A DNA stretch of 64,000 nucleotides from a virus (taxonomy: Duplodnaviria; Caudoviricetes): IMG/VR virus record IMGVR_UViG_3300021387_000334, positions 1 to 64,000 of that record, one strand, 5' to 3'. Position 1 is the first letter of the stretch; every line of letters begins with the position of its first letter. The position numbers and the translations under genes are program-made. Shown here piece after piece: positions 6,848 through 57,404 of the stretch. The notes under the pieces are model-generated. The model saw nothing but the letters and a program-made list of their open reading frames with translations. It was not told the origin of the DNA and did not search any database.

Positions 6848-8542
6848 TTAGGCTGCAAGGTCGGAGCCTGTATAGGTCTCCCATGCAGTGCCGTTATAGA
6901 TAAGCACGGATCCCCTCTCGTAAGTGACTGCCTGAGCGCCCTCGCCAACGGTCACGTCTGAGGTCAGCGCAATCTTCATATTCTTGGCAGGGGTCTTGGG
7001 CAGGTGGTTCGAGCTGACAATCCAGTTCACGATGCCCTGGGTCATGTCGCCAAACATCTTGTCCTCGGGACCTACGATGATGCTGTTGTAGCCCTTCAAG
7101 CCTACAGCATCGGCCATAATCTCGATGTGACGCTTGGCCAGGCGGATGTCGCCAGCACCCTTCGACATGTCGTTGGTCATGTTGCGCTTGCCCTCCTTGA
7201 TGTAGTGGATGGCATTGTCGAGGTCGAGTACAAACATGTAGTCCGACTTGCCCATGAAGTCAAGAGTCTGATCCCACACGAAGTTAATCTCACCAAAGGT
7301 GTCGGTGAAGCGACGGAAGGTGAGGTCGAAGTCCTTGGCCACGGAGAAATGAATCTCGCGGTTCTTACCCGGGTCAATGTTCTCCAGACGCTCGATAGCG
7401 TTCTTACCGCAGAAGGCAAACGAACGGTTCGAGGTGGCGAAGTCGGTGAACTGAAGCTTGGAGATAGCTACGAGGTCTGACAGCATGTACTCACTACCGA
7501 TAGCGTAGTAGTTGGGAATCTGAGGCAGAATTCCCTCACTGTAGAATACGTCCTCGATGGCACCGTCCTCAGTGACGCGCTTCTTCTTGGCCATCACACC
7601 CATCCAGTACGAGCGCTCAATGCGCACGTCGTTGAGGATGGAGGCATCGCGCAGAAGGTCTTTCACCTTGAACGGGTACTTCTTCTTCATCTTCTCAAAC
7701 TCTTCGGTGAACAGCACGTTCCAACCCTTCTTCTGAAGATAGACTTCCTTCTCGCGGGGCTGGAAGTTGTCGGGAGTGACAAGCAGCTGCGACTCCGACA
7801 TGGCATTGGCCATACCCAGCACGTAAGTGCCTGCTGCAATAGCGGGAACGGTACAATCCTCCATCTCGTTGTTCACCTGACCAGCGGTAGCAGCGGGGCC
7901 GTTGATGGCCATCAGTGTCAACTTGGTCTTGGTGCGCTCCACCACCTCCAATACTAGGCAGTTGCCGTCATGCTCCGTCTGCGAACCGGGTTTGTAGCCG
8001 CCCATAGAGGGGACAGCGATGGTGTCGAACTTACGGAATACGCCAAGATTGCCGGAGAAGTTGTTCTTCGTCAGCTCGATAGAGTCACCTGCAGCAATAG
8101 CAGCGGTGATAGTACCATCCAAGGTCTCACCACCCACGCGGGCATGCTTCACGGCGTAGTTCTGCACCTTACGCTCCTTGGCCACACGACCCAGCAGGCG
8201 CATGAACGGTACACGATAGGGCTTCAGTTGGGTAAGGGTCTCTTCGCGTTCCTCTTCCTCCAGACCGCCCTCGCGCATCTGGGTGGCACTGGCCTGCGTT
8301 CCCGTCAGGTTCTGACCGTCGTGCTCACCGCCAGGACTCTGACGGTCGCTCTTGTCTTCCTCAACTACTTCCTTATTATCAACGTCGGTATGAGTGGCTA
8401 CGTCGCCGCCCTCGTCACCGATTTGGGTAGCGGTCAAATCACCAGCTGCGGCCATACCGCCACCACCCGAAACAACAGCGAGCACGAAGAGCAACAGGCT
8501 CAACACGCTCCAAATCTTCTGATACTTTTTCATTGCTTTCAT
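6848..8542 (-). CDS. major capsid protein (HK97 fold inferred) with an N-terminal hydrophobic anchor, 564 aa
   Basis: Follows the scaffold-like gene, is followed by a strong terminator and lies next to the portal. VYLQK...RIERSYWMG segment is reminiscent of SU10/DUF5309-type capsids. Confidence 0.7.
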   Translation of the reverse strand: MKAMKKYQKIWSVLSLLLFVLAVVSGGGGMAAAGDLTATQIGDEGGDVATHTDVDNKEVVEEDKSDRQSPGGEHDGQNLTGTQASATQMREGGLEEEEREETLTQLKPYRVPFMRLLGRVAKERKVQNYAVKHARVGGETLDGTITAAIAAGDSIELTKNNFSGNLGVFRKFDTIAVPSMGGYKPGSQTEHDGNCLVLEVVERTKTKLTLMAINGPAATAGQVNNEMEDCTVPAIAAGTYVLGMANAMSESQLLVTPDNFQPREKEVYLQKKGWNVLFTEEFEKMKKKYPFKVKDLLRDASILNDVRIERSYWMGVMAKKKRVTEDGAIEDVFYSEGILPQIPNYYAIGSEYMLSDLVAISKLQFTDFATSNRSFAFCGKNAIERLENIDPGKNREIHFSVAKDFDLTFRRFTDTFGEINFVWDQTLDFMGKSDYMFVLDLDNAIHYIKEGKRNMTNDMSKGAGDIRLAKRHIEIMADAVGLKGYNSIIVGPEDKMFGDMTQGIVNWIVSSNHLPKTPAKNMKIALTSDVTVGEGAQAVTYERGSVLIYNGTAWETYTGSDLAA

Positions 8543-8563: not shown

Positions 8564-9355
8564 TTAATCTTCGTTCACCCAATCACGGAGCGATTCCTTC
8601 TTTTCACGTTTCGGCGCCGGACGGCTGCTGCCCTGCGAGAAAGATGGCGGGGGTGTCTGTCCGTCGTCAAAGGTCTTCAAGCGGTTAGCATGCTTCTCGT
8701 TGCGGGCCTGCATGGCGGCTTCCTCGCGTGCGTTCTGCATGTCGGTGTCGTAGTTCATGGCGTGCATCATGGCTACCCATGTGTCTTTCCCAACCTTGCC
8801 TTGGAAAGCGGGTGCGAAAATATCATCCCAGAAATGCTCCCACATACGGTCAATCTGCTCATCGCTCAGACCGAACTCCTGCTGAACGGAAGTAAGGGCG
8901 TTGAGTGATTCGTCTATGGCGGCATCCTTGGCCTTCTCTGCCTCTTCGCCGTCAATCTGAGCTTTCTGCCAGTTCTTGAATTTCTCGTCCACCTGTGCCA
9001 TTAGTTCGGGATCGTCGAGTGCGGCCTTGATGTCGATGCCGTTCTCTGTCAACCAAACCAGCGGATTTTTGTCAGGATTCTCTGCCAGGTCTTGGAACAT
9101 GGCTGCAATCCAGCGATTCTTATTCAGTGCTTCAGACAACTGACTGCCCGACTTCCTTAGTTTCCTGTAGTTGTCGCGCTCATCAGCCATGCGGCCGTAG
9201 CGTGCTTCTTTATCCTCAAAGTCCACGTCGGGATTATCCTCGCCGAACATGGCGGCATAGCGGTCTCTGTTTGGTCGGGCTGGCTGTTCGGCGGGCTGCT
9301 GCATTGCAGCGGCTTCCTGAGCCTGTTCTCCGTTTTTCTTCGTTATTTCTGCCAT
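8564..9355 (-). CDS. capsid scaffolding protein
   Basis: Acidic, alpha-helical protein with a basic/helical C-terminus, directly upstream of the capsid gene. ATG9355 preferred because the TTG at 9376 lies inside the promoter. Confidence 0.65.
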   Translation of the reverse strand: MAEITKKNGEQAQEAAAMQQPAEQPARPNRDRYAAMFGEDNPDVDFEDKEARYGRMADERDNYRKLRKSGSQLSEALNKNRWIAAMFQDLAENPDKNPLVWLTENGIDIKAALDDPELMAQVDEKFKNWQKAQIDGEEAEKAKDAAIDESLNALTSVQQEFGLSDEQIDRMWEHFWDDIFAPAFQGKVGKDTWVAMMHAMNYDTDMQNAREEAAMQARNEKHANRLKTFDDGQTPPPSFSQGSSRPAPKREKKESLRDWVNED

Positions 9356-9373
9356 AATGTAAGATTTATGGCG

Positions 9374-9415
9374 CAAATATCTGAATTATTCGTCCCGCCT
9401 CTTCCGTGTTTTCAC
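9374..9415 (-). promoter_or_regulatory. late-type promoter of the head operon (GTGAAAACACGG-N22-GATATTTG)
   Basis: Motif at 9404-9415 on the minus strand, 22-nt spacer, -7 variant at 9374-9381. Confidence 0.75.
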
Positions 9416-9504: not shown

Positions 9505-9526
9505 CGCCCATAAAGTAAGAGTGAAT

Positions 9527-11497
9527 ATGGCAAAGATACGAACCCTATCACAGGCTACAGGCCGCATCCACGATTCCGTCAAGAGCCGGCATCGCCGCAT
9601 GTCTGTGGATATTCCCGTCCGCAGGCGCAGGAGGGTTGACTACGACCTCGTGCTGCGCTGTCAGCAGGCTTGGAACAACCTAGACGATGCCAGAAGAACT
9701 CGCGAACGGGTGAAGGAATATGTCTATGGCGACCAGTGGGGAGATATTATCCACTACCGTCACGGACAAATCACGGAGCGAGAGTATATCCAGCGCAAGG
9801 GTAATGTACCATTACAGAACAATATCATGATCTCCATCCTTGGCTCTGTCACAGGTCTCTACACCAAACAGGCTGGAGAGCCAAACTGCTTTGCCATGCG
9901 CAAGGATTCCCAGTGGCTCTCGGATATGATGTCGGCCACCATTCAGCAGAACTGGCAAAAGACAAAGCAGATGGATGCCCTGAAAGCAGCAATGGAGGAC
10001 TTCTGTATTGGCGGCATGGCTATTGCCCGTGAGACCTATGAGGAAAAGATGGGTCGCCGTGTGGCTTGGACGGACTTCCCGAATGTGAATCATGCTTTTT
10101 GGGAGGCTGGCACAGACCCGCGCATGTCAGACCTACGAATGGTTGGTCTGCTACACGATGCCACCAGAGGCGAACTTTACTCCAAGTTCTGCAACGAGAA
10201 ATACGGCTGGACGGTCGCTGAGATCAATGAGGTCTTCAATATCCCGGACCCTCAGGATTATCCGGGCTATCCATCCAGCTCCGGTTATCAGCAGAACGAG
10301 CGCGAAAGTCTCTCCGCACTCTCTTTCGACAAGGCATCAGACAACGGCCTCTACCGTCTGATTGAGGTGTGGACGCAGGAGACCAAGACACGGTATCAAT
10401 GCTATGACCCATTGGCCACCAAGGCCGACGATATAGAATTTCGCGTCGAGGTGAAGGACATATGGCGAATCCAGCAGAAGAACCAAGAGCGCATCCGTCA
10501 GTATCAGGAGATGGGAATCCCCGAAGAGGAATGGGCTCTGATAGAATACGAACTGATTGAGGATTTGTATTGGTACTTCACTTATCTGACTCCCGATGGC
10601 ACTGTGCTTGCCGAAGGTGAGACTCCATACGAATCGAAGACTCACCCCTTCTCCATCAAACTCTATCCTTACGTCAACTCGGAGATACACCCCTTCATGG
10701 GTAATATCATCGACCAGCAGCGCTACATCAACCGCCTGATTATCATGCACGACATGGCAGCACGCTCGGCTGCAAAGGGTATCATGATTTTCCCAATAGG
10801 CAATATCCCCGATGGAATGTCAAAGGAGGATATAGCCGAAGAGATTACCGAATACGACGGACTTCTATTCTTCGAGACGGATAAGATAAATCCTGCTCTC
10901 CGTCCAGAAATCATCACATCGGGAGCCGTGCAAATCGGTACGCAGGAACTCCTGCAGATGGAGCTTAACCTTGCACGCGACATCACCAACGTCAGCGGGG
11001 CACTCCAGGGCAAGACTCCCTCTGCCGGAACTTCTGCTGCCCGCTACGCACAAGAGACGCAGAACGCTACCACTTCTCTCGCATCCATCCTCCATGACTT
11101 CACTTCGTTCATGGAGTCGATTGCACAGAAGAAGTGCATGATGATCAAGCAGTACTACCGTCACTCAGACCTTGTAGTATCGCGCGACCATACTATCTTC
11201 TACGAGTACGACAATCTCTCTGCCCGTGACGTGGACTTTGAGGTGACTATCAAGGAGTCTGCCGCTACCGCTGCCTACCGTACCTACATCAACGACACCG
11301 CTCTCCAGCTCCTACAGATGCAGGCCATCAACGTCAAGCAATACCTGGAGGTGGTCAACCTCCCCTATGCCGACGAACTCCTGCAAATCATCCAGCGTGA
11401 CGAGGCACAGCAAATGGCCATGCAGCAGGAACTCATGGCGCAGGGGGTCAATCAGCAACAGGTTAATAACGCACAACAAATGTTACAGGCCGCATGA
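9527..11497 (+). CDS. portal protein (P22-like)
   Basis: About 656 aa, with IIDQQRYINR and GALQG-type portal motifs and a Q-rich C-terminal barrel helix. Divergent from the scaffold/capsid genes. Confidence 0.8.
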   Translation: MAKIRTLSQATGRIHDSVKSRHRRMSVDIPVRRRRRVDYDLVLRCQQAWNNLDDARRTRERVKEYVYGDQWGDIIHYRHGQITEREYIQRKGNVPLQNNIMISILGSVTGLYTKQAGEPNCFAMRKDSQWLSDMMSATIQQNWQKTKQMDALKAAMEDFCIGGMAIARETYEEKMGRRVAWTDFPNVNHAFWEAGTDPRMSDLRMVGLLHDATRGELYSKFCNEKYGWTVAEINEVFNIPDPQDYPGYPSSSGYQQNERESLSALSFDKASDNGLYRLIEVWTQETKTRYQCYDPLATKADDIEFRVEVKDIWRIQQKNQERIRQYQEMGIPEEEWALIEYELIEDLYWYFTYLTPDGTVLAEGETPYESKTHPFSIKLYPYVNSEIHPFMGNIIDQQRYINRLIIMHDMAARSAAKGIMIFPIGNIPDGMSKEDIAEEITEYDGLLFFETDKINPALRPEIITSGAVQIGTQELLQMELNLARDITNVSGALQGKTPSAGTSAARYAQETQNATTSLASILHDFTSFMESIAQKKCMMIKQYYRHSDLVVSRDHTIFYEYDNLSARDVDFEVTIKESAATAAYRTYINDTALQLLQMQAINVKQYLEVVNLPYADELLQIIQRDEAQQMAMQQELMAQGVNQQQVNNAQQMLQAA

Positions 11498-17787: not shown

Positions 17788-17807
17788 AATAAAGAAAGGT
17801 AAAGACT

Positions 17808-38600: not shown

Positions 38601-39861
38601 TTGTGGCAATCTTGCTGGCAAGCACTCCCTTGGCATGGTCTTTCACCCATTTCTTGCCATACTTCTGCATAGCATATTTCACCAGACCCTTCTGTGCTGA
38701 CTGCCCAAGGCCTGAAGCGGGGTTGATAGCCATTTCAAGCATGAAGGGGAGGGATTCGCCCGTCACCTGTCCTGCTTTTGCCCAACCGCTTAACTGTTTG
38801 CCATATTGTGAGGAGACGGCATTATTCAGAGCCCAGTCGCTCAGCAATTCTCTTTCATCCTCAGTAATCTGCTCGCCGTTATCCATGCGAATGATGGCCT
38901 CCATCAACTTTGTCTGCGTGTTGATGTCAGTGGCTCCGAAATCCCATGTGGACTTCTTGAAGGTAGAGTTGGCTACGTTTCTTGCTGCCTGTTTCAGACC
39001 GCCAAGGATGTCTACATCGCCCTCTCTATTCTCAATCTTCACCTCGTCGATGATACGCTTGCCCTCAGAAAGCAGATGCTGACGGGCCTCCAGCAGTTTG
39101 CGGTTCTCTGTCTCATTGTTGGCCATCATCATATTCACACCAGCATAAGGGCTTGCAGCCATATTGATAGCGTTGGCAAGAAAGAGCGATGGACTCTGGT
39201 CGTACATCTTGGCCAATTCTCTCAGCTCGCGCTCCTGCGACTTGGCCAGTTTCTTGTTCACCTCGTCGAGACGCTGCTGATTCTGCTGCTCCAAAGTCGG
39301 ACTATTCCTCGACTCTCTCAGATAGCGGTCATAAGCCACCTCCTGCGGCTCTATGGGGGTGATGACATTCTCCTTTACCACATTCCCATTCTCGTCAACA
39401 TATTGCTGAACACCGGGAGTGACCTTTGTATTATGTCGCGCCTCCTGAATATCCTCGCTAACTTTCCTGCGCTTGCCATTACCCACCTCATAAGAGGCTT
39501 CGAAGTCGGGCGTTCCGATAAATGCCTGGTGTGCGCCTTCGCCCGTCAGATAATGGGAAAGCGGCTTGCCAGTCAGCGGGTCTTTAGTAGGCTGCTTGGC
39601 GGCGGGATGTGGTGTCGGCTGTGGTACAACCTGTGGTTGTGCCGTAGGTTGCGGCTCTGTCACAGCGGTTGGCTGTTCAGGTCTTAGCTTTCCGAAAAAT
39701 TCATCCCTGCTGCCTAGCTTGTACCCGTCTGCGGTAAGGTTCTGATACAATTTGTCGGCTTTCGTACTGTCCGACATGTTCTTGGCGAACTGTTCCATCG
39801 AGCCGAGGTTATAGCCGTCGGCCTTCAAGTTCTGGTATAGTCTCTCTATGTTGTTCGGCAT
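23671..39861 (-). CDS. giant polyvalent ejection protein (DarB-like): N6-adenine MTase, strawberry-notch-type SF2 helicase, HExxxH zincin-like domain, LPD-type C-terminus; 5396 aa
   Basis: GLEPSAGNG and VVTNPPF (MTase); GDQTGIGKGRQ, DESHN, SATF and RGRIDRTGQ (helicase); WHETVAHVGL. Confidence 0.85.
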   Translation of the reverse strand: MPNNIERLYQNLKADGYNLGSMEQFAKNMSDSTKADKLYQNLTADGYKLGSRDEFFGKLRPEQPTAVTEPQPTAQPQVVPQPTPHPAAKQPTKDPLTGKPLSHYLTGEGAHQAFIGTPDFEASYEVGNGKRRKVSEDIQEARHNTKVTPGVQQYVDENGNVVKENVITPIEPQEVAYDRYLRESRNSPTLEQQNQQRLDEVNKKLAKSQERELRELAKMYDQSPSLFLANAINMAASPYAGVNMMMANNETENRKLLEARQHLLSEGKRIIDEVKIENREGDVDILGGLKQAARNVANSTFKKSTWDFGATDINTQTKLMEAIIRMDNGEQITEDERELLSDWALNNAVSSQYGKQLSGWAKAGQVTGESLPFMLEMAINPASGLGQSAQKGLVKYAMQKYGKKWVKDHAKGVLASKIATRVAGDVLGGQIMAATTGLVRTSADAAKRYSEGMVENVDQQGNIIFKDKEKRISPMEAFTKAWVANGIGNSSEMWGEYLAPVTGILRNAIGKAVIGKAGREALNLTGRLGDVSLNKAQRFIFDVTSQRGLGAISQGLDNFLKKTQWHGVFSEYIEEELGNLANAATVGDMTFDNAEDTGIFNLQQHIDTFAGVALMGGFISALHTKAYAWDKWNNRMSKIDEKGNKFFADWDDMKTVIQSVADDPIALNSTITAYINNANMSQDERKVVLDYAGKVLERKGAVMAEYQPRMNSSSIKKNDDGSFSVASLDAFGNVIGQQSFETEDEAKAYQGELKMRQQSQDMKDYLQLSVGMSYPESSDLVAEFLGEDPTPEQLADIQNPETEIGRQFQERKNQRVIEKARATREAIAAFEEENGWEAGTIRELSEADPMQLSQEELQMADQAREFLKGLAYPNTEVHTEVSAQEGAEAAEGVVNQVTSTEDAIDPQNNAGKEITEGWAAAQAARQQLFSRNEDLMQEVERMEQQGFFPQEIVSSLDSFSPQDRQTVIDYYNAQAKFNAYMAEAQRKIAEAANMGRQRRTFKGTINGNPDTSNIVNITDGTNTYVLVSGNVQTSNDGRITGSDSGLIIAFDEAAGEMVQLSDASGYSVIPSGVTLDAWEAQEVERLGQGVTMVSDPNGTLSQPQSAPGKPGLSPEESGTLPGGNAPSATAPATPTPPAANATGTVADTSGNTAGTPAVSIESVIDKDGIKRYENGVSVDDAIADIQNDGFDVGEVADASIAEAQQTIDKINGKATKTRKDLIDRKKAQGVIDYYQALKERAAMLSQGTEEAPANGEENVNNQTGQHESGKNVVPSQPGQTVEEQKQERIKALKAELGELFDDDFTKANDVYELVSMWIGRKRNLAWDDVNGKRGLQKELGWTRMIGGDTKYIETLLAKKGEGIGVDEFVHMVWESPENSVGEEKRWTTEEIKEALLDLLKSAQSKSDVVDYAVNSREQAARVAPEAQQQMEQEAAAQQPAEVEVAPLTDEEIAQMEANLPFAAPVEGEDIPDSPITQLMKLVQELMQQEGMPQIKLVDTDRMSDDEWIDLTSQVYGGDFVDEETVNEVRDYALTTGVIRDDDGTILVFSDSQTPEDVKSKIQTILDYANTLQEEGRNDGRDTIVERTETKTPQEQKPETPAAAGAAGTESQGSTEPVVTETPAEVPQGTERDEYLQPRNEKEEQIIADVIAQLQQEIDAAIKERDKAASDLQKAQAKESDRATDMFSDDEAFQEPGQLFSFDDMGGTDRTKEGVNRRTAAERKALQDAQKKLDQLQSEAERKSRIRGALDNERRQTSFTPAADATGTVTGQPQSREEYLASHPLTEEQIMADMGALEDEKLNAIDFLRGEDDSAISRFYYDSIYERAQKTSSENRQKKEGNEPAKEKKEERDSWQSATDEEFYPVAKDWLDQQEKPYSSALQRKFKIGYHKATRIMERYMAEKGAENDPMAAIEQAAQSFREEQKSQDQKDIDDALKEFNDFLDNAKGSNVLDKFMRKGLEGNDKAQASLLDAFTLTNEAQRMFLKDLLRLASKVGYAYIKSGVHDVQTWSKKMSDSIGQKLKEVLGWEDDIIGEFVDEVWQQKYTVDGQRMRLSEHAERLKNGNSTDQTVNEHKDENNDPENVVSSQQKPASKLEGDSAEFAERQHKLTQLTKKIRAKLQGIVNWGDQPKPLSAYKQIAKELGIENLSDTDLQELIETEVVNLAREIANKEGLTDEKKFLKIVKLYEGQPSLNARDNDRINKQQYSTPAPMAFLMGKFLKEGKEVKSGLEPSAGNGMLTLNLPKEAMHVNDIDEMRLSNLAKQGFAEVTSQDGTQPFGEKKYDVVVTNPPFGNVPAKTYDGLYEISGLEHQMAINALESMKDDGRAAIIIGGNTEYNQNGSIKGKDRAFFNYLYAHYNVVDVINMDGKTLYSRQGTGFPVRMILINGRKEFNPRSFAPTIQKARAERVNSYDELYKRVNDDILSDSNKPASVHDTESGESDGKHDNGHAGNTTQTGVRNVRSEGGSKQRQLLDSGGQSVSGGVGSTSKGADTGTDTSVGERGDVVHGTGSTASQPGGSTPSSAEQGGNVPNRRNDTERPDGRVDVSVGGGSRPSVEVRRLGTEKVPYRQQSKNPYSLQSQMPAEQAEVVKKALEELGDVDEFLVKELGYSSVEDLHHGSQSPEKHGGLAAEQIDSVAMAIHQMNEGNAFIIGDQTGIGKGRQAAALIRYGVKKGGCPVFITVKKGLFSDMYRDLCDIGSPGLRPFIWSADDEEHSADVTDKNGNVVYKRPSDKEQKRVVDYINKYGKLPPEYDYIVTTYDSFKGGTMVYEEGQKKARNFGKKSPTTGAYNSQAKRDALERLAENSYVIMDESHNAGGETSAVSGYLQYITTKAKGVTFLSATFAKRPGNMPIYSLKTAIAKAGVKIGELIDAVKQGGATFQEIMSKALTEAGQMIRRERDMTGVTIDWKGIEDEAVIEKQRQQYDTIIGLFNDIIDFQRRYVDPIVNKKNDEAADEQGEVDHTPGTRDMGINNTPFASRTYNMVQQVLLSLKAEETAKRAIEHLKQGHKPVIALANTNEGAADEVSTGEDMEMPDLSVNLKKGLQGTLRITKKDAFGNSTNEMIPFDELSEAGQARYREIMDAIENASSGLSLSPIDVIKNELKKAGYKVGELTGRKQEFVYNEDGTVKRVKRQDSDKKRTAADFNNGKLDVLILNKSAGTGISLHASSKFDDQRQRVMIVAQAQGDVNDEVQIRGRIDRTGQVLRGMYEYVVSQIPSEQRLLMMLKAKLRSLDANTTSSQKSKFNEMQVQDIINKYGDDIVIQYLAEHTDLAAKMVDPLKWGEGFETMPAETLIANATKDGEAGKTASKVLGRMALLKVAEQEKMLAEIGDLYQAEIDRLNEMGENDLEITEMPLRAKTLGKKVWEEGVEPGGKNPFADNSYVEEVEMDILKKPMKAEELKKSQSRLLGGKTWDEYKQGVLERLDKWEAEKKKDATDTITARAEKKAQAEKEKYIKGAKKAQEKNGMTDAEIEKNGQYQYDHFYKEEMEKLQAALDAVDKQKQAFVDALETFTTDGVYALPTDIYDLGELSFEPSFGKVIDIKISDNFSTAASTISFATLDGRRKITIPISGMVKQSNGEKRDIKPIIVQQSAQSRSGFFGSNIANMMKVLEQNVDNWDKLTSTATRKKGYIITGNLLKALTSLQKQRQGGKLISYTTDTGEIRQGVLMGERFDPGALTSQNPISSAKADLDDWGKDRKITSADGDVTIKADGYGSWMSYTLKVPKSKKKGEKYFNDKVLLSLMDGQFEGSSALKADFKEENLDKVLKRLDELGVTVQSKKEDTNNDIDSGYSEDIEEDELNTLEGGYSEETDEEVIERLEREPKIKVYRAMSLIDGKLYPPMATKQDGQLREPIELGKWEKSDEHPEKAVKRNGKWVFKLTKDNGKSLFAAYNPYIHTSTTMLNDQFSEAQNRPNLVVVEVEVPESELTSGYKAEKAKDAVGRLEWKAGIIQGQLTGTREVILSRWDKPVRIVPTEEVAKSIAKQINCKVEVMPTNVVTPAQREALEKEGVKFVETDNRGKIVDGPNKGKTYSSVYGKKAKNSGYSEGEAKAKPQSTRHKENIRKHVENLLNKLGTRNRTTVITSINGVRNKARREHIENMHKQGKKVYGWFENGRIYLYLPDIDSIYKAEQTIWHETVAHVGLRELLGADNYGKLLNRLWMQHKDGEMGDWVTRRMQVNGWSLHKAIDEWLAREAEKVVAERQERRTLWQKLAGWVGDILREIGYRTNPTITDVRYLFWLSENQLREGEPMSAIKRAAFLHRLERENRTAVLQRSTKRGSDMDAGYSEDIDDPMEYSEKAVYDERLNRVETVFTEAYQDSMIALKTAQNAIAHDKAIPDSQNAYMAENLMHGKNKNEQDLFNSMLRDPLIDTINKIMNRTGMNWGDVDRYVYTKSGLERNREFFVRDWLERERNKNIRKYEDLNPEEQDIFDHKAEVIETLFEDGDIETEEQKEKELAKALQEAHKEYIDSIEERLVALKQKNYLDLQTGDINFADYLAGLTNFILDNIDGAYNPSENDYSGFRAMYGDEDGKYDEDEIIAELMDTEDAIEAENVDTLWEQIQNCTRYGLERYRESGMRSDEQIDKIEQMFHWYVPMRGFKNDTGEDMYQYFTAKGKEKSYIGGLLKHAKGRGSEANYPISTIFAMTYKAISDCNQNLVNQKLYRLCQTNPNDLVVLSDTWAKLNEATGEFEEAYPDINDDMDEEEIRQAVVAFEEEMKELAKENKAIKIRGKEKFDYVPMDKKKKSEHVIEVRINGQQKRMIVVGNPRMAQALNGQLRFERGKNVFSKWNNAVKNFMASVFTSYSPTFALRNMFRDWTHFRTMLGVREGRGYAKRANKYYRQSLFKMVGLFRKYREGTLNMDNEMERDFKDFMDNGGITGFVQMQKIDDIQKQMEKLYKQQKDGKPVRLNNKVWEYTLGAIEALNEGIENNARFATFRASRHYAGRTKARAAYDAKEITVNFNKKGAGSKTAGFKSQNKVVEDAAKAFGVTSQILGEGRIFFNATVQAIATTFKNFQKADGSLNKGYIAKWAARYALPPFAFGLALPMINQALAAAFGGDDDDPYANLPEWTRRKNICIYIGNNNFITIPIGQELAAFLALGDMFAGLTYAPNLKPVDRSIDEEMVGIMNTFSPVDIDTKITKGGLMEDPVDELVGRTFSVLAPLVAVGQNLGWTGRPIYREDKFQNDQFTPEYQMVYSGTNPALVNASKLLHELGGGDDIVRGKLEVNPAIVQYLWEQYSGGPGKFLGNTLVGAGKDLKDLLVEGEAPDFNIRKIEGVKAFVQQGDDRTQYYRTQAKYRKYKADAEKLHDAVKGYEGAAAEDPMALMKLENIVTGEDYVRMEIVREADKQLSKINKAANKAEGRERKELRRLYNEQVKAVVDLLDGVGKD

Positions 39862-39867: not shown

Positions 39868-41118
39868 TTAGCTAAATGGATCGTCTTTGTGATTCGTCTT
39901 TGTCTGTGCGGGCTTATTTCGGTCGGCGAACGGATCGCCCTTTGTCTTGTCGTTAGGTATCTGTTCGTTCCATTGCCACCCATATTTTGAGTGCATACGG
40001 ACGGCTGCATCATCATGCTCCATTAGCATCTTGTCAACGGCTCTCTCTTTGATGTTCTGCGAGATTGCAGCTGAGCCTCCGATGCTATATCCTCCGTAGT
40101 TCATCTGTCCTTTGAGTTCGGCTTCGTCAATATAAGGTCGCCCTGTACGCGGGTCTTTCATTTTCTTGCCCCACTCATACATCTGGTGATAAGTGTTCTT
40201 TATCTCGCCTGCGGTTGCTCCTTTTTTCGTCAGATAGCCTCGGCGGGTGTCTCTCCGTTCCACCTTGCCGCTACCACCACCGCCACCATTCAGGCGATTG
40301 ATATAGGCTGCGGCCCTGCGTTCGTTGGTGCGGGCATTCCTGTCAGCGATACCAGCCATCGTGTTCTGATAACTCGTCTGTTGTTTCAGCCTGGCTTCCC
40401 CAAGGGCTTTTGCATCATCGGCTCTGCGATTACCGAGGTCAAGCTGGCCTTGCTGATAAGCTTTCTGCTGCGCCAGCCTGTCCTGCATATTCTTGATCTG
40501 CGCCTCTGTATAGCCAGCCTTCCTTGCAGCGTCGGCCACCTTCAATCCATAGTCTGCCTCCCACTGCCTCTGCTTGGCATCCTGCGCGGCCTTGGCCTGC
40601 TGGTAGGCACTATATTTCAGATTGGCGGCATCACGGAGAGCCTTGCCCCTCTCGTATCGCTGTTCCTCTTCCAGGACGGGAGAGTTGAACTGCTGAGGCG
40701 GGGCATAGTTCACGGTGTGGATAATGTTGCCGATATGTCTGGCGGCATCGGCAAATGCCAGGATGCGACGGTTGGCCATGCTTGCCCTCCTCATACGCTC
40801 CTCATCCTCGGGACTGGTGTACATCTGTGCCAGTGCGTTCATGCCCGAAGCGGGATTGCTCGGGTCGATGGGAGGCTGATAGGTGACGGGGGGCTGAACG
40901 GGGTTGTTCGTGTTCCTTGGCGGGACGGCCTGCGCCGTACTCTGTGGCGCTGGCTTCGGAGTTTGATAATTGCGGAACATGTTGGGGTTCTGCTTGCCTG
41001 CTGCGAACTGCTCCGGCGTCTCGCCCGCCACCTGTCCGGGCGTTCTCTGCTGCGCCATCTGCTGCCCTTGGGCTATCCCCGCAAGCTTCTGTTGCTGCAA
41101 TAATAGATTATCTGCCAT
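39868..41118 (-). CDS. DNA ejection/pilot protein (Q/A-rich coiled coil)
   Basis: Composition, position directly upstream of the giant ejection protein, and a late-type promoter. Confidence 0.6.
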   Translation of the reverse strand: MADNLLLQQQKLAGIAQGQQMAQQRTPGQVAGETPEQFAAGKQNPNMFRNYQTPKPAPQSTAQAVPPRNTNNPVQPPVTYQPPIDPSNPASGMNALAQMYTSPEDEERMRRASMANRRILAFADAARHIGNIIHTVNYAPPQQFNSPVLEEEQRYERGKALRDAANLKYSAYQQAKAAQDAKQRQWEADYGLKVADAARKAGYTEAQIKNMQDRLAQQKAYQQGQLDLGNRRADDAKALGEARLKQQTSYQNTMAGIADRNARTNERRAAAYINRLNGGGGGSGKVERRDTRRGYLTKKGATAGEIKNTYHQMYEWGKKMKDPRTGRPYIDEAELKGQMNYGGYSIGGSAAISQNIKERAVDKMLMEHDDAAVRMHSKYGWQWNEQIPNDKTKGDPFADRNKPAQTKTNHKDDPFS

Positions 41119-41141: not shown

Positions 41142-41183
41142 CAAAAATAGCGTGAATGCCGTTTCTGTCTCCCGTGTTTTTAC
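41142..41183 (-). promoter_or_regulatory. late-type promoter of the ejection operon (GTAAAAACACGG-N22-TATTTTTG)
   Basis: Motif at 41172-41183, -7 box at 41142-41149, both on the minus strand. Confidence 0.8.
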
Positions 41184-41293
41184 ATGTGGAATTGTTAGAA
41201 TTCCTTAATTTGATTTGCTATCATTTGCTATCATTTGTCGCCGATTCCATGAAATTTGCAAAACACGGAAAGATTCTCTATATTTGCAGCATT

Positions 41294-41797
41294 ATGAAGA
41301 ATGACTACGACATAGAAAAACAGAAGCAGGACGATCTGATAAATGCGTACAATCAGGTTGCTCCCCACTGCCTGATGCAGGATGATGCCTACAGGAAGGC
41401 GGTAAAACAGCCCGCACCAAGATATTACATATCGGCAAAGCAGGCTGCACAGGTTCTCTCCCCGATGGTCAGAGGCGACTTCACGAGGGTAGACATGATG
41501 ATACCCAACAGGAGGCGCATGTACTACTCTCTCTTCGAGAAGGTGCTGGAACTGTCAGAGAAGCGGGCGTTCGTAGGGAAGTCGCTCCTTTACATCACTC
41601 GGTTTGCGGTATTATCCCCTGCGCCGGAGTTCTTTATCGGTGGCGACTCTTTCAGAGTGCTACGCTCGTATCTGAAGAACGGGCACTATGACGATGACGG
41701 AAGGACGTGCGGACTCCCTGGCAGACAGAGGGCCTACGAGAAACTGAAGAGGAAACGGGAGAGAATCAAGGCGCTCAAATCCTCGCTTCGGTCATAG
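41294..41797 (+). CDS. hypothetical basic protein, possible transcriptional regulator
   Basis: QPAPRYYISAKQAAQVL motif. Has a canonical TTTG-N20-TATATTTG promoter at 41255-41286. Confidence 0.65.
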   Translation: MKNDYDIEKQKQDDLINAYNQVAPHCLMQDDAYRKAVKQPAPRYYISAKQAAQVLSPMVRGDFTRVDMMIPNRRRMYYSLFEKVLELSEKRAFVGKSLLYITRFAVLSPAPEFFIGGDSFRVLRSYLKNGHYDDDGRTCGLPGRQRAYEKLKRKRERIKALKSSLRS

Positions 41798-43934
41798 GCT
41801 CAAAGGTCTTCTCCTTCTTTTCCTCACGTCTCCATGAGGGCTTGTAGATGGATTCATGGAAGGCGATCCACAGTCCGATGGCCGTAGACATGAGTACGTC
41901 GTCATGCTTTCCGGATCCCGGCTCGTTACCCATCCTGTTCGTCTCAGGGTCGCGCTGATACCAGCCTAATTCCTGGTACATGTTCTCGTCGGGCTCTTCC
42001 CAGAGCTTGTCATCCACACACGCAATCAGATTATCAATGAGCCATATCTTCGTCTGCACATTGGTATGAAAACCATATATCGGCTTGATTCCCTCGGTAG
42101 TGCTCTCCGGCTCCTTCACTCTCTGATAGAGATTAGGATAATACCCCGCAATCTCGGTGATGATAGTACCGAAGTGGTCGCCCTCGGTATTGTTGTCCTT
42201 CTCGCGGTCTGCCGTGTTTTTCTCAATGACCAATAAAGCATCGTCATAGAAATGTGCCAAGGCCGCTGCCGTCCAAGCGAGTATATCATGTCTGATATGC
42301 CCCCTCCATCGGGCTACTACTCTCGGCCTGCCCTTCACCTCGGGAACCATACCCATCAAATCAAAGACTGTCATCACGGTATAGTCACTCGTCTGGCTCT
42401 TTCCTCCAATATCCACAGATACCAGATACCGATTCCTGACTTTCAGTATCTGATTATTGGGCATCGACCATATCTTCAGCTCTCCCGCCTTGTCATTCCG
42501 GATTTTTATATCCGCATTGAGGAACACCTTGCGGCTCTTCTGCTCGAACGGGGGAAGGTTGATGTTGGCATAGTAGAGTGGAGACTTTGGGGCCTGACAG
42601 TCCTCCTTCAGATCATCAATGGCATACGGGTCGAAGACTGCATTACCCGCATTACGGAATGCCTCAACGGGGTCGATAGGAGCCTCGGAGGCCATGTAGC
42701 CGTGCGCCTTGTGCTCATTACGTCTGTATCTGTACCAGTTGATAGCCTCAAAGCATGCACCCATCTTCCATAGCCTCCAGAAGAACTTACCGCTCTCACG
42801 GAATCCCGCAGGGCACTGCTCGTAGTCTTTATTCTCCCATAGCCAAGTGGCAAATTCCTCCTCTTCCTTCTCAGAAAAACCTTCCTTTCCCATCGGCTTC
42901 ATGTCATTCTCAATCAGGAAGAAGGCGATAAACAGGAAATGGTAGGCCGAAGTGGAATCTTCCTTCATGGCATCCTGACAGAGGTCATAGAAGAATCCGC
43001 TGTTCTTCTTACCCGTACTCTCAAAGACGGCCAGCTCGTCGGGCAGTCCAAGGAATCCACCCTGCAGGTTGGAGATAACCTCGTCGGGGTCGTGTTCGGG
43101 GGTCTTCTTCCACGATGCCACCTCGGAGTAGTGTACCATCTTGTAGTTGTCGCCACGGCACTTCTCAAATGAGTTGAAAGAGGCGATACTCAAAAGCGAG
43201 GTACGCGCCAAGAATTTACCGTCGGTAATCTGAAAGTCGGAGTCTGAACGCTCGTATGGGGTCATCTGCAGCTTACTGCCTGGCATCCCTATCGTCCATC
43301 CCGGCTGCTTCTCCACGGCCTTTCTGTACATGGCCTTGATCTTCTTGGAGGTAGAGTCTGCCTGAGTGATTACCGCTGCATTCCATCCGTGGGGGTGACG
43401 GAACTCCTGCATCCACTTGATGTACATCTGTGTCAATGTTGAACCTCCCCACTGGCGGGCTTTCAGCAAGACCACAAGGATAGGCTTGTTCGCCCTTCGC
43501 AGGTCTTCGAAGAGTCCAAGCAGCTTTCTCTGTGCATATCTCAGACGGAAGGGTATCATGCCGCCCGTCACCTTATCCACAATCTGGTCTACCAACACAA
43601 ATGCAAACTCGGGATCGTCATAGCACCTCGCCTGGAAAAGGGCTTCCTCCACGTCCTGATGATACCATTCATCATAAGTCCCGTTGACCTGCCCGCTCTC
43701 TTCTATAAACCTACGGATAGTGCCGTATTTCAAGACCTCATGCCATATCGTACTCTCCATGGTCTCTCTCGGAATCCACATTTCGGGGATGATGCAGTCG
43801 GGAATGACCACATGAACCCTCATTCCCTCCTTGAAACCATAGCACCCCAGCCCCGTCAGCTGGTCGTAAGGCCCGAATATCTCCTGCCTTCTGCTATGAT
43901 TCTCCGCTATCAGCTCCCTTATCTCTTCCTTCAT
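41775..43934 (-). CDS. terL: terminase large subunit
   Basis: LKARQWGGST (Walker A), HYSEVA (Walker B), SVDIGG...SDYT and HDDVL nuclease motifs. ATG43934 overlaps the upstream stop. Confidence 0.9.
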   Translation of the reverse strand: MKEEIRELIAENHSRRQEIFGPYDQLTGLGCYGFKEGMRVHVVIPDCIIPEMWIPRETMESTIWHEVLKYGTIRRFIEESGQVNGTYDEWYHQDVEEALFQARCYDDPEFAFVLVDQIVDKVTGGMIPFRLRYAQRKLLGLFEDLRRANKPILVVLLKARQWGGSTLTQMYIKWMQEFRHPHGWNAAVITQADSTSKKIKAMYRKAVEKQPGWTIGMPGSKLQMTPYERSDSDFQITDGKFLARTSLLSIASFNSFEKCRGDNYKMVHYSEVASWKKTPEHDPDEVISNLQGGFLGLPDELAVFESTGKKNSGFFYDLCQDAMKEDSTSAYHFLFIAFFLIENDMKPMGKEGFSEKEEEEFATWLWENKDYEQCPAGFRESGKFFWRLWKMGACFEAINWYRYRRNEHKAHGYMASEAPIDPVEAFRNAGNAVFDPYAIDDLKEDCQAPKSPLYYANINLPPFEQKSRKVFLNADIKIRNDKAGELKIWSMPNNQILKVRNRYLVSVDIGGKSQTSDYTVMTVFDLMGMVPEVKGRPRVVARWRGHIRHDILAWTAAALAHFYDDALLVIEKNTADREKDNNTEGDHFGTIITEIAGYYPNLYQRVKEPESTTEGIKPIYGFHTNVQTKIWLIDNLIACVDDKLWEEPDENMYQELGWYQRDPETNRMGNEPGSGKHDDVLMSTAIGLWIAFHESIYKPSWRREEKKEKTFEPMTEARI

Positions 43935-44425
43935 AGCCAGTCCCTCGTTCCGTGCGGTGCGATATTGTCGCGCCAGAAATAACCCACCAAATATCCCGCC
44001 ATCAGACAATAGATATGCAGCAAGGCGTTCACATGGGGAATGAACATCGGGATTATCAGAAACCACTTATTCCTCCAAAGCATATCCCTGAACCGCTTCA
44101 CACGACCCCAGCTCATGCCCACAATGGCAAAAAGTACACCGCTGAAACCGCAAGTAGCCTCACCAATAAAGCAAGGCAGGAAAGAGCAGAGCGCCGCTAT
44201 CAGATAGGAGACGGACAGATGCAGTCCGCATGGAATCATCCAAAGGCAAAGGATATTCGCCATCAGATGCCACACATTGGCATGACTCAGCGGATATAAC
44301 ACATGACCCGTCCAGTATGTTGCGGTATTTCCGCAACCCCCACCGAAAGCAAACTGCGGCATAGCAAAATACCACACCACCAATACAAGGCTCACTATGA
44401 TCTTAGCAAGGGAATACTTCATCAT
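43931..44425 (-). CDS. rhomboid-family intramembrane serine protease
   Basis: HANVWHLMAN (HxxxxHxxxN), GFSG (catalytic Ser) and LHIYCLMAG (TM6 His), with multiple TM segments. Confidence 0.8.
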   Translation of the reverse strand: MMKYSLAKIIVSLVLVVWYFAMPQFAFGGGCGNTATYWTGHVLYPLSHANVWHLMANILCLWMIPCGLHLSVSYLIAALCSFLPCFIGEATCGFSGVLFAIVGMSWGRVKRFRDMLWRNKWFLIIPMFIPHVNALLHIYCLMAGYLVGYFWRDNIAPHGTRDWL

Positions 44426-44904
44426 ATCAGGCAGAAGGAGAAGGTGTTGGAAAAGCACACCATCTCACCCCAGAAAATCATCGTCTCCCATTTCTTCCAG
44501 CCGATGATGAAACCCGCTATGACATACGGAATCCACAACAGCAGAAGAAGCGGACAGTTAAACACTAAGACCAGCTGGCTGCAGGAGGCACAGACGATGG
44601 CACCCCACTCATGAACCTTGAACTGCATGGCATCATCCCTGTACTTCACCAAAGGGGCGGCACCGACAAACGCCAACCCCGCTATGGCAAGGAAGGCAAG
44701 GAACTGGGTGTTCTCCGTAGTCCTCCCGATATACACGGGAATACAGAGATAGCAGACCGCCAGAATGACAAGCGACCAGACATACCTCAGCTTCTCGGGA
44801 ATCCAGAACACACTGGCAGAAAGAGAGGACGGGACACGGCCTATCTCACGGATCATGTAAAGCGTGTAGGCCAACAGAATAAGGATTGCTATTACGATAC
44901 TCAT
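44422..44904 (-). CDS. polytopic membrane protein (about 5 TM)
   Basis: Hydrophobic segments throughout. ATGA-coupled on both sides. Confidence 0.7.
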   Translation of the reverse strand: MSIVIAILILLAYTLYMIREIGRVPSSLSASVFWIPEKLRYVWSLVILAVCYLCIPVYIGRTTENTQFLAFLAIAGLAFVGAAPLVKYRDDAMQFKVHEWGAIVCASCSQLVLVFNCPLLLLLWIPYVIAGFIIGWKKWETMIFWGEMVCFSNTFSFCLI

Positions 44905-45467
44905 TTCACCTTGATATATTTGTTGTACTCAATCTTGCAGCGTGGATTATGACTCACCACATAGACATTATACCCCTTCGTCCCCCAACGGAACCAGAGA
45001 AACCTATGCTTATACTCCCTGGTGACATAGGTCGTTAAAGAGTCCCGGACTTCACAATCAAGGACTCTTGACTTTAATTCGTATGAAAAAGAAAACCACT
45101 TATCACTATAAGCGAGTATAGAGTCATTCAAAGGCTGAAGGACAACAGTGTCACGGGTAGAGAGAAGAGTCTGATTCTCCGACTCTATCTGACTTACCCT
45201 TAACCTCAAGTCCCTGATCAGTTCCTTGTCGGCCAAAAGCTTCTTATAGTCCGTCCTGTCAACCTCAACGACACGCTCCTTCCAAACAGGAATACTGTCG
45301 TGAATGTAAAAGGTGTCTGCTCTCTGCCGGCTCTGAGCCAGCTGAACCTGCAAATCGCGAATCTCAGACCTCAAAGAACGGTTGGCCCTGTTCTCACAAC
45401 AAGACCAACCAAGTAGTACAAAAACTAAAACTAAACTAACTACTAACCAAAAACTAAGCTTATTCAT
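44901..45467 (-). CDS. membrane-anchored coiled-coil protein, spanin-like
   Basis: N-terminal hydrophobic segment ending in GWSC, then a coiled coil and an RFLWFRWG C-terminus. Confidence 0.5.
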   Translation of the reverse strand: MNKLSFWLVVSLVLVFVLLGWSCCENRANRSLRSEIRDLQVQLAQSRQRADTFYIHDSIPVWKERVVEVDRTDYKKLLADKELIRDLRLRVSQIESENQTLLSTRDTVVLQPLNDSILAYSDKWFSFSYELKSRVLDCEVRDSLTTYVTREYKHRFLWFRWGTKGYNVYVVSHNPRCKIEYNKYIKVK

Positions 45468-46314: not shown

Positions 46315-47067
46315 TCACCCCCCAATCACACCCCTTGCACGCCTGCGTTCCTCTGCGGTAGCGGCTTCCGAAATCTTCCCCAATACACCATCACCGCCAA
46401 ATACATCGCTCGAAATGTTAGGCTTCACGCCCATGTCGGTGTCTATCTGCTCGGTTGTCTTCGGTATCTCCGTACCTTTATTATCTCCACCCGTGAGGGA
46501 GGTTGCTCCGTCAAGTGCGCTTCCTGCCTGCATGATGGCGTTAGATGCGTTCTGCGCTGCGGTTGTGATGTTCTGTGCCCTTTGCATCTCCCTATTCATA
46601 TCCATCTGTGCATATTGCTGCTGCGCCCTTTGGTGCATTATGTCGGCATTACTTTTCCGTGCTTGGTCTGTGGCGGCTATATTGGCTATGGTGTCACCGA
46701 CCATCTTATTTCCCGCATCCTTGGCCATCTGTGCGGCTGATGCAGTGCCACCGCTGACCGCCTGCGCACCAGCAGCCTTGCGCCATTGCTCCTTCGCATA
46801 GTCCTTGGCACGTCTGACAAGGTTCTGCCCTGCTGCGGTATCAACATAGTCTTCATTATACCTCTTATTATACCATGCATCGTCCCTCGCTTCCTGCTTC
46901 CTCTGTCTTCTCTCTGCTGCGTTCGCTGCGGCAGAAGCCTTTGCACCGCCAAAGAGAGACGAGGCAAGTGCGCCTGCCGCACTGATGGCAGAGATAATCC
47001 ATTGTTTGTGTGAAGGAGCAAAACTGATGCCCATTCCTAACGGCTGATTTAATGCTTTTATGTTCAT
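46315..47067 (-). CDS. DNA pilot / ejection protein (Ala/Gln-rich, N-terminal hydrophobic Gly/Ala segment)
   Basis: IISAISAAGALASSLFGG followed by a coiled coil, with a late-type promoter. Confidence 0.65.
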   Translation of the reverse strand: MNIKALNQPLGMGISFAPSHKQWIISAISAAGALASSLFGGAKASAAANAAERRQRKQEARDDAWYNKRYNEDYVDTAAGQNLVRRAKDYAKEQWRKAAGAQAVSGGTASAAQMAKDAGNKMVGDTIANIAATDQARKSNADIMHQRAQQQYAQMDMNREMQRAQNITTAAQNASNAIMQAGSALDGATSLTGGDNKGTEIPKTTEQIDTDMGVKPNISSDVFGGDGVLGKISEAATAEERRRARGVIGG

Positions 47068-56586: not shown

Positions 56587-56757
56587 TTAATCTATGAAGT
56601 CGGTAATAGGCTTAAATGTCTGAGTCCACGTGTCAAACATTGTACCTTGATCTCCAACACTTATATACCTGCATTCACAGAGATACAACCATCCGTAGAT
56701 GATAAGCACCGCCAAAACTATGACGGCATACCATTGTTTAAATGTCAGCTTCTTCAT
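56587..56757 (-). CDS. small single-pass membrane protein coupled to the repressor (56 aa)
   Basis: MKKLTFKQWYAVIVLAVLIIYGWLYL...; ATGA overlap with the repressor stop. Confidence 0.6.
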   Translation of the reverse strand: MKKLTFKQWYAVIVLAVLIIYGWLYLCECRYISVGDQGTMFDTWTQTFKPITDFID

Positions 56758-57404
56758 TGTCCCATTCTGATTAATCCGACAATCCTGTAGATACCGAAGA
56801 TGTCGTCTCCGGCAACTTCGAAATCGGGGTATTCGGGATTATAGGAAACGCATCTCACTCCATTCTCCTTAGGATATAGCCTTTTCAGTACGTTACCATC
56901 CCTTGTGGCGAGAACATAGGCCTTACCCCACTCAATAACATTCTCCACCTTCTTGCAGGCCACCTCGTCGCCTCCTTCAAACTTTGGCTCCATGCTATCC
57001 CCTTTGATTAACATGGTGAAGTCATAGTCTGGCATGGATCGCATCTTGGGGAGCATTTCGCATTCGTGTACCAGCACGCCGTCTATGTAGTCGGACAATA
57101 CTCCTGCAGCAGCGGTAATAGGGAGCCGAGGGCGTAGGTCTGATTTGGAATTATTATCCAGCAATTCCAAGTCTACCTCCATCTTACCTTCTCCTGCATA
57201 CAACCATTCTCTGTTAATCTCAGGGAATGCATCTGCCACTTTGTTCACAAGAGAACGCGGAACGCCCCGGTTACCTTTTAATATCTGACCGAGGTTCTGG
57301 GGGGCAAAACCGATTCTTTTGGCGAATTGGCTCTGATTTTCGCTAACATAGTCCATAATGCGCTTTATGCGCTCCAACATTCCTTTTTCCTCCATAACAG
57401 ACAA
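56754..57404 (-). CDS. cI: CI/LexA-like repressor (HTH plus S24 peptidase)
   Basis: NQSQFAKRIGF HTH, IKGDSMEP (Ser), VLKRL (Lys) and AAAG cleavage-site-like motif. Confidence 0.88.
   Translation of the reverse strand: MSVMEEKGMLERIKRIMDYVSENQSQFAKRIGFAPQNLGQILKGNRGVPRSLVNKVADAFPEINREWLYAGEGKMEVDLELLDNNSKSDLRPRLPITAAAGVLSDYIDGVLVHECEMLPKMRSMPDYDFTMLIKGDSMEPKFEGGDEVACKKVENVIEWGKAYVLATRDGNVLKRLYPKENGVRCVSYNPEYPDFEVAGDDIFGIYRIVGLIRMGQ

Follow-up and report, generated by a model that had tools for sequence, protein, structure and literature searches.

Why would a tailed phage carry a gene for an intramembrane protease among its head and packaging genes? This question is raised by a 64,000-nucleotide stretch of a virus of the Caudoviricetes (Duplodnaviria; positions 1 to 64,000 of the IMG/VR record IMGVR_UViG_3300021387_000334), hereafter the window, which covers the greater part of a viral record of 73,027 bp rated 100% complete by CheckV. 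The window encodes a rhomboid protease next to the large terminase subunit (TerL), as well as a major capsid protein (MCP) precursor whose first residues resemble a signal peptide. We found that the rhomboid and the capsid leader recur in hundreds of related contigs, far beyond chance. This pairing points to a possible, undescribed membrane step in shell building. All evidence presented here is comparative, drawn from sequence and predicted structure; the sequence sample was mostly metagenomic, with many near-duplicates out of one sample, open reading frames (ORFs) were longest-ORF calls, and trees were built using FastTree with midpoint rooting. The features on which the argument turns are as follows.

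43931..44425, minus strand: rhomboid intramembrane serine protease, 164 aa, six transmembrane (TM) helices, starting with MMKYS (Pfam, AlphaFold2 [AF2], and Foldseek)
41775..43934, minus strand: TerL, 719 aa, phrog_5989, with a start that overlaps the rhomboid stop (ATGA)
6848..8542, minus strand: MCP precursor, 564 aa, SU10_MCP/HK97 type (profile, and Pfam of homologues)
8444..8542, minus strand: signal-peptide-like leader, MCP codons 1-33, with an n-region of net charge +4, a hydrophobic core of about 15 residues, SGGGG, and MAAA

The initial annotation, made from the DNA alone, had proposed a rhomboid of about 164 aa with the motifs HANVWHLMAN and GFSG and a histidine in TM6, and both the ORF and its motifs were confirmed. 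The product scored 24.7 bits on Pfam Rhomboid (PF01694; E=3.1e-5), above the gathering threshold of 22.6, and precomputed PF01694 assignments were found on many of its homologues (MEROPS family S54). No family in PHROGs matched the ORF, and the PDB sequence search by the rhomboid profile gave weak matches to GlpG (E=0.22). The AF2 model (pLDDT 78.8, pTM 0.78) was matched by Foldseek to GlpG of E. coli and H. influenzae at all PDB ranks from 1 to 34 (probability 1.0, TM 0.55-0.70), followed by iRhoms and then noise. Additionally, the GenBank label of the homologue in phage BF1-TP2 is already rhomboid protease. The gene at 43931-44425 truly encodes a rhomboid, one that is compact and has six helices.

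The catalytic serine, S95, lies in GFSG (G93-F-S95-G96) and the catalytic histidine, H137, in TM6, and the TM2 signature HxxxxHxxxN is present as H48, H53, and N57 (HANVWHLMAN). GFSGVLF of the phage protein aligns with GLSGVVF of GlpG, and the H48/H53/N57 region aligns with the HFSLMHILFN stretch of GlpG. In an alignment of 26 homologues, H48, N50, H53, N57, G93, S95, G96, and H137 were invariant. Among 123 unique phage homologues, extending to approximately 28% identity, Ser95, H48, and N57 were retained in all 123, and His137 and H53 each in 122. Because the catalytic set is conserved, these results argue for an active enzyme rather than an iRhom-like pseudoenzyme or a decaying gene. The WR motif, which is common but not universal in rhomboids, is not in the first loop (L1); the short L1 has a conserved GHxLYP instead. 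Nine lysine or arginine residues are distributed over the two termini and the loop between TM4 and TM5, against none on L1/L3/L5, which predicts a GlpG-type topology with the active site facing the periplasm. On the NCBIfam rhombosortase model TIGR03902, the window protein scored 12.9 bits and its relatives no more than 27.5, below the cut-off of 84. The rhomboid family gains a new, minimal member in the phage protein.

The capsid protein offers a candidate substrate. Its start, read directly, is MKAMKKYQK, then IWSVLSLLLFVLAVV, then SGGGG-MAAAG; the hydrophobic start followed by GGGG that had been noticed in the window recurs in homologues. The profile of MCP homologues matched PDB 9in6 'major capsid of VP1' (E=1.9e-16), and Pfam SU10_MCP (PF17236) was matched by 11 of 15 aligned homologues (best 1.7e-35), although the window MCP alone was below Pfam detection. 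In the AF2 model, a helix at residues 3-26 is followed by disorder at 27-108 and then by a folded core, and approximately 80 acidic, disordered residues separate the leader from that core. The gene directly 5' of the capsid gene is the following.

8564..9376, minus strand: scaffold-like protein, 270 aa as the longest ORF, phrog_22323

This product is a putative scaffold, assigned by position and composition, and every related locus has its gene beside that of the MCP. An AT-rich spacer precedes the first MCP ATG, which stands 20 nt past the stop codon of the scaffold gene.

The leader layout was found in all 66 unique MCP ORFs of rhomboid-bearing loci, with n-region charges of +2 to +5, and its hydrophobic pattern persists at 24-67% capsid identity. 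When 1.84 billion cluster representatives were searched with a profile, 1,169 MCP homologues were identified; the leader is common to more than 180 distinct homologues and is present in approximately 120 of the 150 top-ranked representatives. The first 36 MCP codons contained 734 synonymous and 497 non-synonymous differences. The median uncharged stretch of the leaders is 19 residues. Of 185 leaders, 181 have glycine between the hydrophobic core and the first acidic residue, and in 91 that acidic residue is immediately preceded by alanine. The leader shows the n/h/c features of a signal for the Sec pathway and signal peptidase I (SPase I), namely a positive n-region, a short h-region, and -3 and -1 positions occupied by small residues. 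Lipoprotein and Tat signals were rejected by eye, as no consistent lipobox cysteine and no twin-arginine was seen among the leaders. In leaderless relatives, the MCP begins exactly at the leader end, with MA or MD. P0161 was rejected as a leaderless MCP: the public capsid gene call (P0161 / L251) is an artefact that begins at the internal Met-Ala, so that the leader is hidden. Gene callers sometimes begin the capsid gene past the leader in this way, which conceals the feature in public records.

The distribution of the two features was analyzed in 156 IMG/VR loci from rhomboid-based and TerL-based scans. In approximately 90 loci containing both genes, rhomboid and leader were both present, and six of the 156 loci had neither. 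Four seeming exceptions were over-long ORFs, and the L104 contig stops short of the position where its subgroup has the rhomboid. A scan with the leaderless MCP added 80 loci, partly on the same contigs; no rhomboid and no leader was found in them, although TerL was included in 76. Likewise, a 100%-complete leaderless record of 72.9 kb had no rhomboid anywhere, and in genomes of the leaderless clade the gp49-like gene abuts TerL. The rhomboid was absent in all 88 leaderless sequences, and among the loci compared none combined a rhomboid of this family with a leaderless MCP. All three bacterial-genome loci that include the MCP gene had both rhomboid and leader. Two previously unseen leader-bearing lineages, P0227 and P0255, were picked as a test, and a rhomboid was found nearby in both; in P0227 it lies beside the capsid module, away from TerL. 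The contigs P0187, P0204, P0248, P0262, and P0267 were too short to score the rhomboid, and a scan of viral records with P0267 gave no match.

Leaderless MCP genes also occur in mini-cassettes on bacterial chromosomes, with no rhomboid nearby. In these cassettes (L246:9131-14854, L248:10001-13632, and L247:146-3281), leaderless SU10_MCP genes (421-431 aa) are accompanied by a short P22-portal-like gene (416-452 aa) and by one for a protein of 170 aa, and the L246 cassette includes a 592-aa TerL-like gene. They sit among housekeeping genes (RecQ, RecJ, SusC/D, and YceG) on Bacteroidetes chromosomal contigs and may represent a domesticated capsid/packaging module.

The cultured phage BKO1-TP3, which has both a leader-type MCP and the rhomboid, nests within the leaderless clade, near L197/L201, in the trees of TerL (support 0.96-0.99), scaffold (1.0), gp49 (0.956), and portal (0.998). 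It is collinear with L197/L201 at 57-75% protein identity (portal 75%, TerL 71-73%, gp49 60%, and scaffold 72%). Its MCP, however, shares 25% identity with the L197/L201 type and 60% with the leader type, and L197 has a gap of only 22 nt at the rhomboid position. The rhomboid and MCP genes of BKO1-TP3 are not adjacent; because backbone-type scaffold and gp49 genes lie between them, the change is not one swapped block. The genomes also differ in gp46 beside the MCP gene, which has diverged to approximately 30%, and in the small gp52/gp53. The BKO1-TP3 mosaic is the strongest single piece of evidence for a probable rhomboid-leader link.

Gp52 itself (L002/L245, record 40020-40349) is a small, basic, soluble protein encoded 3' of TerL. 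Within one subgroup, 17 leader-type loci have it; it was found in no leaderless locus and is not universal among leader-bearing phages.

The opposite arrangement is seen in L250. This leaderless locus falls within a subgroup that bears the leader (support 0.986), and in it the gp49-like gene overlaps TerL, leaving no rhomboid between the two. Taken together, gene content and tree positions show coupled gain and loss of rhomboid and leader, as judged from sequence. The initial annotation had suggested that TerL-adjacent rhomboids should co-occur with TM-bearing capsid N-termini, and this is borne out by the strong co-occurrence, the coupled losses, and the BKO1-TP3 mosaic, but not by phages of the P0196 type.

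The P0196-type phages (G006-G010, comprising L255 and L259-L278) have genomes of 54-59 kb and are sister to two rhomboid-bearing lineages in the capsid tree (support 0.974). Their MCP retains a degenerate, hydrophobic, membrane-anchor-like N-terminus that lacks the GG...Ala ending and has no internal Met. No rhomboid was detected by Pfam or by the family profile in their five records, which are 92-100% complete, and no other candidate protease was found in these records. The rhomboid-leader dependence is thus one-way, because the rhomboid was never seen without the leader and a hydrophobic N-terminus can persist without the rhomboid. This asymmetry is expected if the leader is the reason for the presence of the enzyme.

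The claim that the window has no recognizable prohead protease was upheld over the whole 73,027-bp record, in which Peptidase_S78, S77, ClpP (S14), and S49 gave no match at E<=1. Besides the rhomboid, the only peptidase domain in the record belongs to the following gene.

56754-57404: S24 repressor

Our literature searches on phage rhomboids with capsids, Bacteroides phages, and capsid signal peptides returned no paper that pairs them.

These observations can be assembled into a mechanism. The rhomboid would be made late in infection, alongside the head and packaging proteins. The leader would place its basic N-terminus in the cytoplasm, followed by a short hydrophobic helix, with (S/T)GG and a hydrophobic-x-x-Ala sequence at the outer face, and would thereby park the new MCP at the inner membrane. 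Cleavage by the rhomboid would fall at the GG...Ala junction or close to it, after which the MCP, now without its leader, would assemble in the cytoplasm with scaffold and portal. We infer membrane insertion of the leader, the rhomboid rather than a host SPase as the cutter, the cut position, and cleavage before assembly. The GG...Ala end of the leader would lie at the predicted periplasmic face, by the rhomboid active site. Known rhomboid substrates have helix breakers near the site, a small P1 residue, and a hydrophobic P4 residue (PMC2941825), and the leader endings LAMA, FAMA, ICLA, and MAVA fit a hydrophobic P4 with a small P1. Of the readings considered, removal of the capsid leader by the rhomboid is the one we favor, at about even odds. 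The fuller scheme, in which the MCP is made as a membrane-inserted precursor and the phage rhomboid is the capsid maturation protease, is put forward more tentatively.

The N-termini of HK97-fold coat proteins normally point to the shell interior. Because they face inside, cleavage of monomers before assembly is likelier than the release of finished procapsids from the membrane, which had been suggested for the window and which we regard as unlikely. In addition, a membrane protease cannot enter the shell, and the candidate rhomboid must therefore act on unassembled protein.

Several points weigh against removal of the leader by the rhomboid. Much of the co-distribution is phylogenetically non-independent, with only two or three clean coupled events, and L250, which represents one of the leaderless cases, is a 10.8-kb fragment. 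The absence of a rhomboid from the P0196-type phages means that the phage enzyme is not indispensable for an MCP with a hydrophobic start. At the level of the substrate, the hydrophobic P2' preference of rhomboids is not consistently satisfied by the leaders, and the predicted N-in/C-out orientation is opposite to that of the type I/III substrates that define rhomboid specificity (PMC2941825). Point by point, the leader also matches the classic layout of Sec signals, including an AxA-like (-3, -1) end, and host SPase I could cut it unaided by the phage enzyme; because it resembles a textbook Sec/SPase I signal, host SPase I stays a live rival. Finally, a cut at the periplasmic face leaves the cytoplasmic location of the 500-residue capsid body unexplained. 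Only the disordered acidic linker might enter the translocon and slip back after the cut; alternatively, the short helix, GGG, and the short stretch that follows might form a re-entrant anchor in the inner leaflet.

One rival assigns the cut to host SPase I, after which the rhomboid would act as a signal-peptide peptidase on the same leader. The n/h/c layout and the small residues at -1 and -3 favor this order of events, as does the orientation of freed signal peptides, which sit N-in/C-out as predicted for the leader. It accounts for the co-distribution equally well as direct removal by the rhomboid does, and it also accounts for the rhomboid-less P0196-type lineage. However, an exported capsid protein would still be a topological puzzle, and the (S/T)GG and hydrophobic-x-x-Ala elements are kept over very deep divergence, beyond the usual needs of SPase I. 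The decay of the GG/Ala elements in the one lineage that has a hydrophobic N-terminus and no rhomboid likewise fits SPase I poorly. We consider SPase I-first cleavage unlikely. It is similarly doubtful that the rhomboid serves, late in infection, to clear the load of freed leader or to relieve stalled precursors, as bacteria already own enzymes for signal-peptide clearance.

A second rival holds that the rhomboid is unrelated to the capsid and cleaves another phage or host membrane protein, with the leader link reflecting shared ancestry or linkage. Suggested substrates, each of low probability, are a holin, an antiholin, or the spanin-like neighbor (with a role in lysis timing), the product of 46315-47067, and a host envelope protein (with a role in takeover or exclusion). 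In the window, the rhomboid gene is translationally coupled to the gene of a 5-TM protein and to that of a DUF6549 protein with a membrane anchor, a DUF6549 gene adjoins an endolysin gene in L252, further phage proteins with Gly-rich hydrophobic stretches exist, and the P0196-type phages bear a leader without a rhomboid. Yet both membrane-protein neighbors are missing from nearly all loci that retain the rhomboid, and its gene is always amid head and packaging genes. Moreover, no locus pairs the rhomboid with a leaderless MCP, and rhomboid and capsid type are the clear-cut differences between BKO1-TP3 and L197/L201 although the two genes are not adjacent. We regard a substrate outside the capsid as improbable.

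It is very improbable that the hydrophobic start is untranslated and the MCP begins at the internal Met-Ala, leaving no capsid substrate: leaderless relatives (MA/MD) and the public P0161 gene call do begin precisely there, but the extension is open, ATG-led, and hydrophobic in 66 of 66 unique sequences at 24-67% identity, its changes are mostly synonymous, and the AT-rich spacer precedes the first ATG and not the internal one. Because the conserved Met is a CTT/CTG Leu codon in the L029/L034/L050/L054 group, it is not a general internal start; it is also missing in L149 and L152 and in the P0196 type, and an internal Met-Ala start was rejected as a general explanation.

Leader removal by the phage rhomboid can be compared with known systems, of which the trimming of TatA by AarA and, at the conceptual level, rhombosortase with GlyGly-CTERM are functionally the closest. 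The phage enzyme resembles GlpG and AarA in its six-helix fold, Ser-His dyad, TM2 His/Asn residues, and predicted periplasm-facing active site; it differs in its size of 164 aa, its short L1, the lack of WR, and its being phage-encoded in a head/packaging operon. In Providencia stuartii, AarA clips a short extension off the N-terminus of TatA and so activates it (PMC3712462, PMC2941825). Similarly, the phage rhomboid would trim the N-terminal end of one partner near a helix broken by Gly/Ser. In contrast to TatA and the model substrates, the proposed phage substrate helix is N-in/C-out, and its cargo is a cytoplasmic capsid protein.

The rhombosortase/GlyGly-CTERM system came to light, as the phage pairing did, because the partners are almost perfectly co-distributed and their genes often lie close together (Haft and Varghese 2011, PMC3237569). 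Its signal has three parts: a motif of small residues, often SGGS, then a single TM helix and a cluster of basic residues (PMC3237569). The phage system is alike in that a dedicated rhomboid is paired with a tripartite signal and the GG motif would lie at the periplasmic helix end in both. However, the phage signal is a mirror image, being N-terminal (basic cluster, helix, and SGG) with one target per genome, and GlyGly-CTERM proteins are truly exported, whereas the capsid protein should not be.

Prohead proteases (HK97 gp4/S78, T4 gp21/S77, and ClpP- and S49-like enzymes) also trim the MCP N-terminus and are encoded amid head genes, but they are soluble and co-assembled within the procapsid, whereas the phage rhomboid is a candidate integral membrane protease. 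With Sec/SPase I signals, the leader shares a basic n-region, an h-region of 9-15 residues, a Gly turn, and small -3/-1 residues. It differs in that it stands on a protein destined for the cytoplasm, its GG/Ala elements are over-conserved, and its presence tracks the phage rhomboid. The head genes of the window resemble those of P22/SU10-type podophages in the P22-like portal, SU10 adaptor, SU10_MCP coat, separate scaffold, and lack of a prohead protease. We know of no hydrophobic leader or rhomboid associated with the coat proteins of the model P22/SU10 podophages.

If the proposed pathway is true, the model of soluble, cytoplasmic head assembly misses a group of Bacteroidales phages that is large and abundant in gut and rumen, given more than 1,100 capsid homologues and a leader in most of the best 150 cluster representatives. 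It would be the first head assembly pathway in a tailed phage that depends on an intramembrane protease. It would also provide a natural, dedicated enzyme-substrate pair for a bacterial-type rhomboid, which is rare, with an unusual orientation and a conserved GG...Ala. The substrate would then be a signal-peptide-like N-in/C-out helix with GlyGly, the mirror of GlyGly-CTERM/rhombosortase. Because three relatives (BF1-TP2, BKO1-TP3, and BS-TP4) have been cultured on Bacteroides, the question is directly testable, and matched relatives lacking both leader and rhomboid exist in nature.

The genes next to the rhomboid and TerL genes in the window are as follows.

44422..44904, minus strand: 5-TM protein, family unassigned, with five hydrophobic segments, coupled 5' of the rhomboid
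44901..45467, minus strand: DUF6549 protein, spanin-like, with an N-terminal membrane anchor (Pfam DUF6549, E=5.4e-24)
41156..41797, plus strand: gp49-like protein (phrog_27246, E=5.6e-15)

The initial annotation had described a chain of ATGA overlaps from a spanin-like gene through the 5-TM and rhomboid genes to TerL. All three overlaps are real (DUF6549 stop and 5-TM start, 44904-44901; 5-TM stop and rhomboid start, 44425-44422; rhomboid stop and TerL start, 43934-43931), but the spanin-like and 5-TM links are not conserved in relatives. The 5-TM protein had no Pfam, PHROG, or NCBIfam match, and no homologue of it was seen in other related loci; both neighbors are absent in nearly all related loci retaining the rhomboid. 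A reading of the chain as a lysis cassette was rejected because the 5-TM and DUF6549 genes are not conserved with the rhomboid. The gp49-like family in relatives is usually encoded directly 5' of the rhomboid, or of TerL where the rhomboid is absent, and homologues of BKO1-TP3 gp49 were found in 114 leader-type and 85 leaderless loci.

Coupling of the rhomboid to packaging, also proposed earlier, is a suggestion from gene order and is not supported. The rhomboid gene was always among head and packaging genes in the loci compared, but lay away from TerL in 13 of 59 non-redundant rhomboid-bearing lineages, and in L252 it adjoins the scaffold and capsid genes instead. By tblastn, TerL matched genes annotated as terminase in phages CRP-7, douglas 12A4, and others. 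In public annotation (L001 and L002; GenBank PQ571263 and PQ571269), TerL is labelled 'tail spike protein', and the BKO1-TP3 rhomboid is mislabelled 'glycoside hydrolase'.

The DUF6549 protein had a weak match to an Rz-like spanin (E=0.037). In L252, the DUF6549 gene (within 17090-18349) directly follows an Amidase_3 endolysin gene. The membrane anchor and this adjacency to an endolysin suggest a lysis role, of the spanin-like kind, for DUF6549 proteins. Farther along, a conserved protein of 177-250 aa (window 46315-47067, minus strand; L255:5968-6501) has a weakly hydrophobic N-terminus rich in Gly, Ala, and Ser. A basic stretch and then a Gln/Ala-rich coil come next; the protein is a possible membrane inserter and a possible rhomboid substrate.

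The window phage is a temperate, podovirus-like phage of Bacteroidales (Prevotella-like). Its gene set includes a P22-like portal, an SU10-type adaptor, and a phage lysozyme, and its lysogeny and regulation genes encode a tyrosine integrase, the S24 repressor, and a Rha/Ant regulator. The closest rhomboid homologues in bacterial assemblies were found in metagenome-assembled genomes of Prevotella, Prevotellaceae, Segatella, Bacteroidaceae, and Parabacteroides. The portal gene lies as follows.

9521..11497, plus strand: portal protein, P22-like (Pfam P22_portal, E=3e-22)

The rhomboid/TerL block is approximately 36 kb from the capsid block in the window phage, with a 5,396-aa DarB-like ORF between them (window 23671-39861, minus strand) that contains methyltransferase- and helicase-like regions. 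Its counterpart in BKO1-TP3 has 5,553 aa and is annotated as DarB-like antirestriction. Three paralogous phrog_19255 genes (173, 254, and 209 aa) stand in tandem 3' of the portal gene (window 11971-13933, plus strand). Additionally, a 356-aa phrog_16490 protein (window 15784-16854, plus strand) has long Gly-Phe repeats (GGGFGG/GGFGGFGG) that flank a hydrophobic stretch. Two small lipoprotein-like genes with lipobox-type signals were found within the structural region (window 434-718, plus strand, and 4267-4662, minus strand); one of them has a lipocalin-like domain, and the pair may represent morons or exclusion factors.

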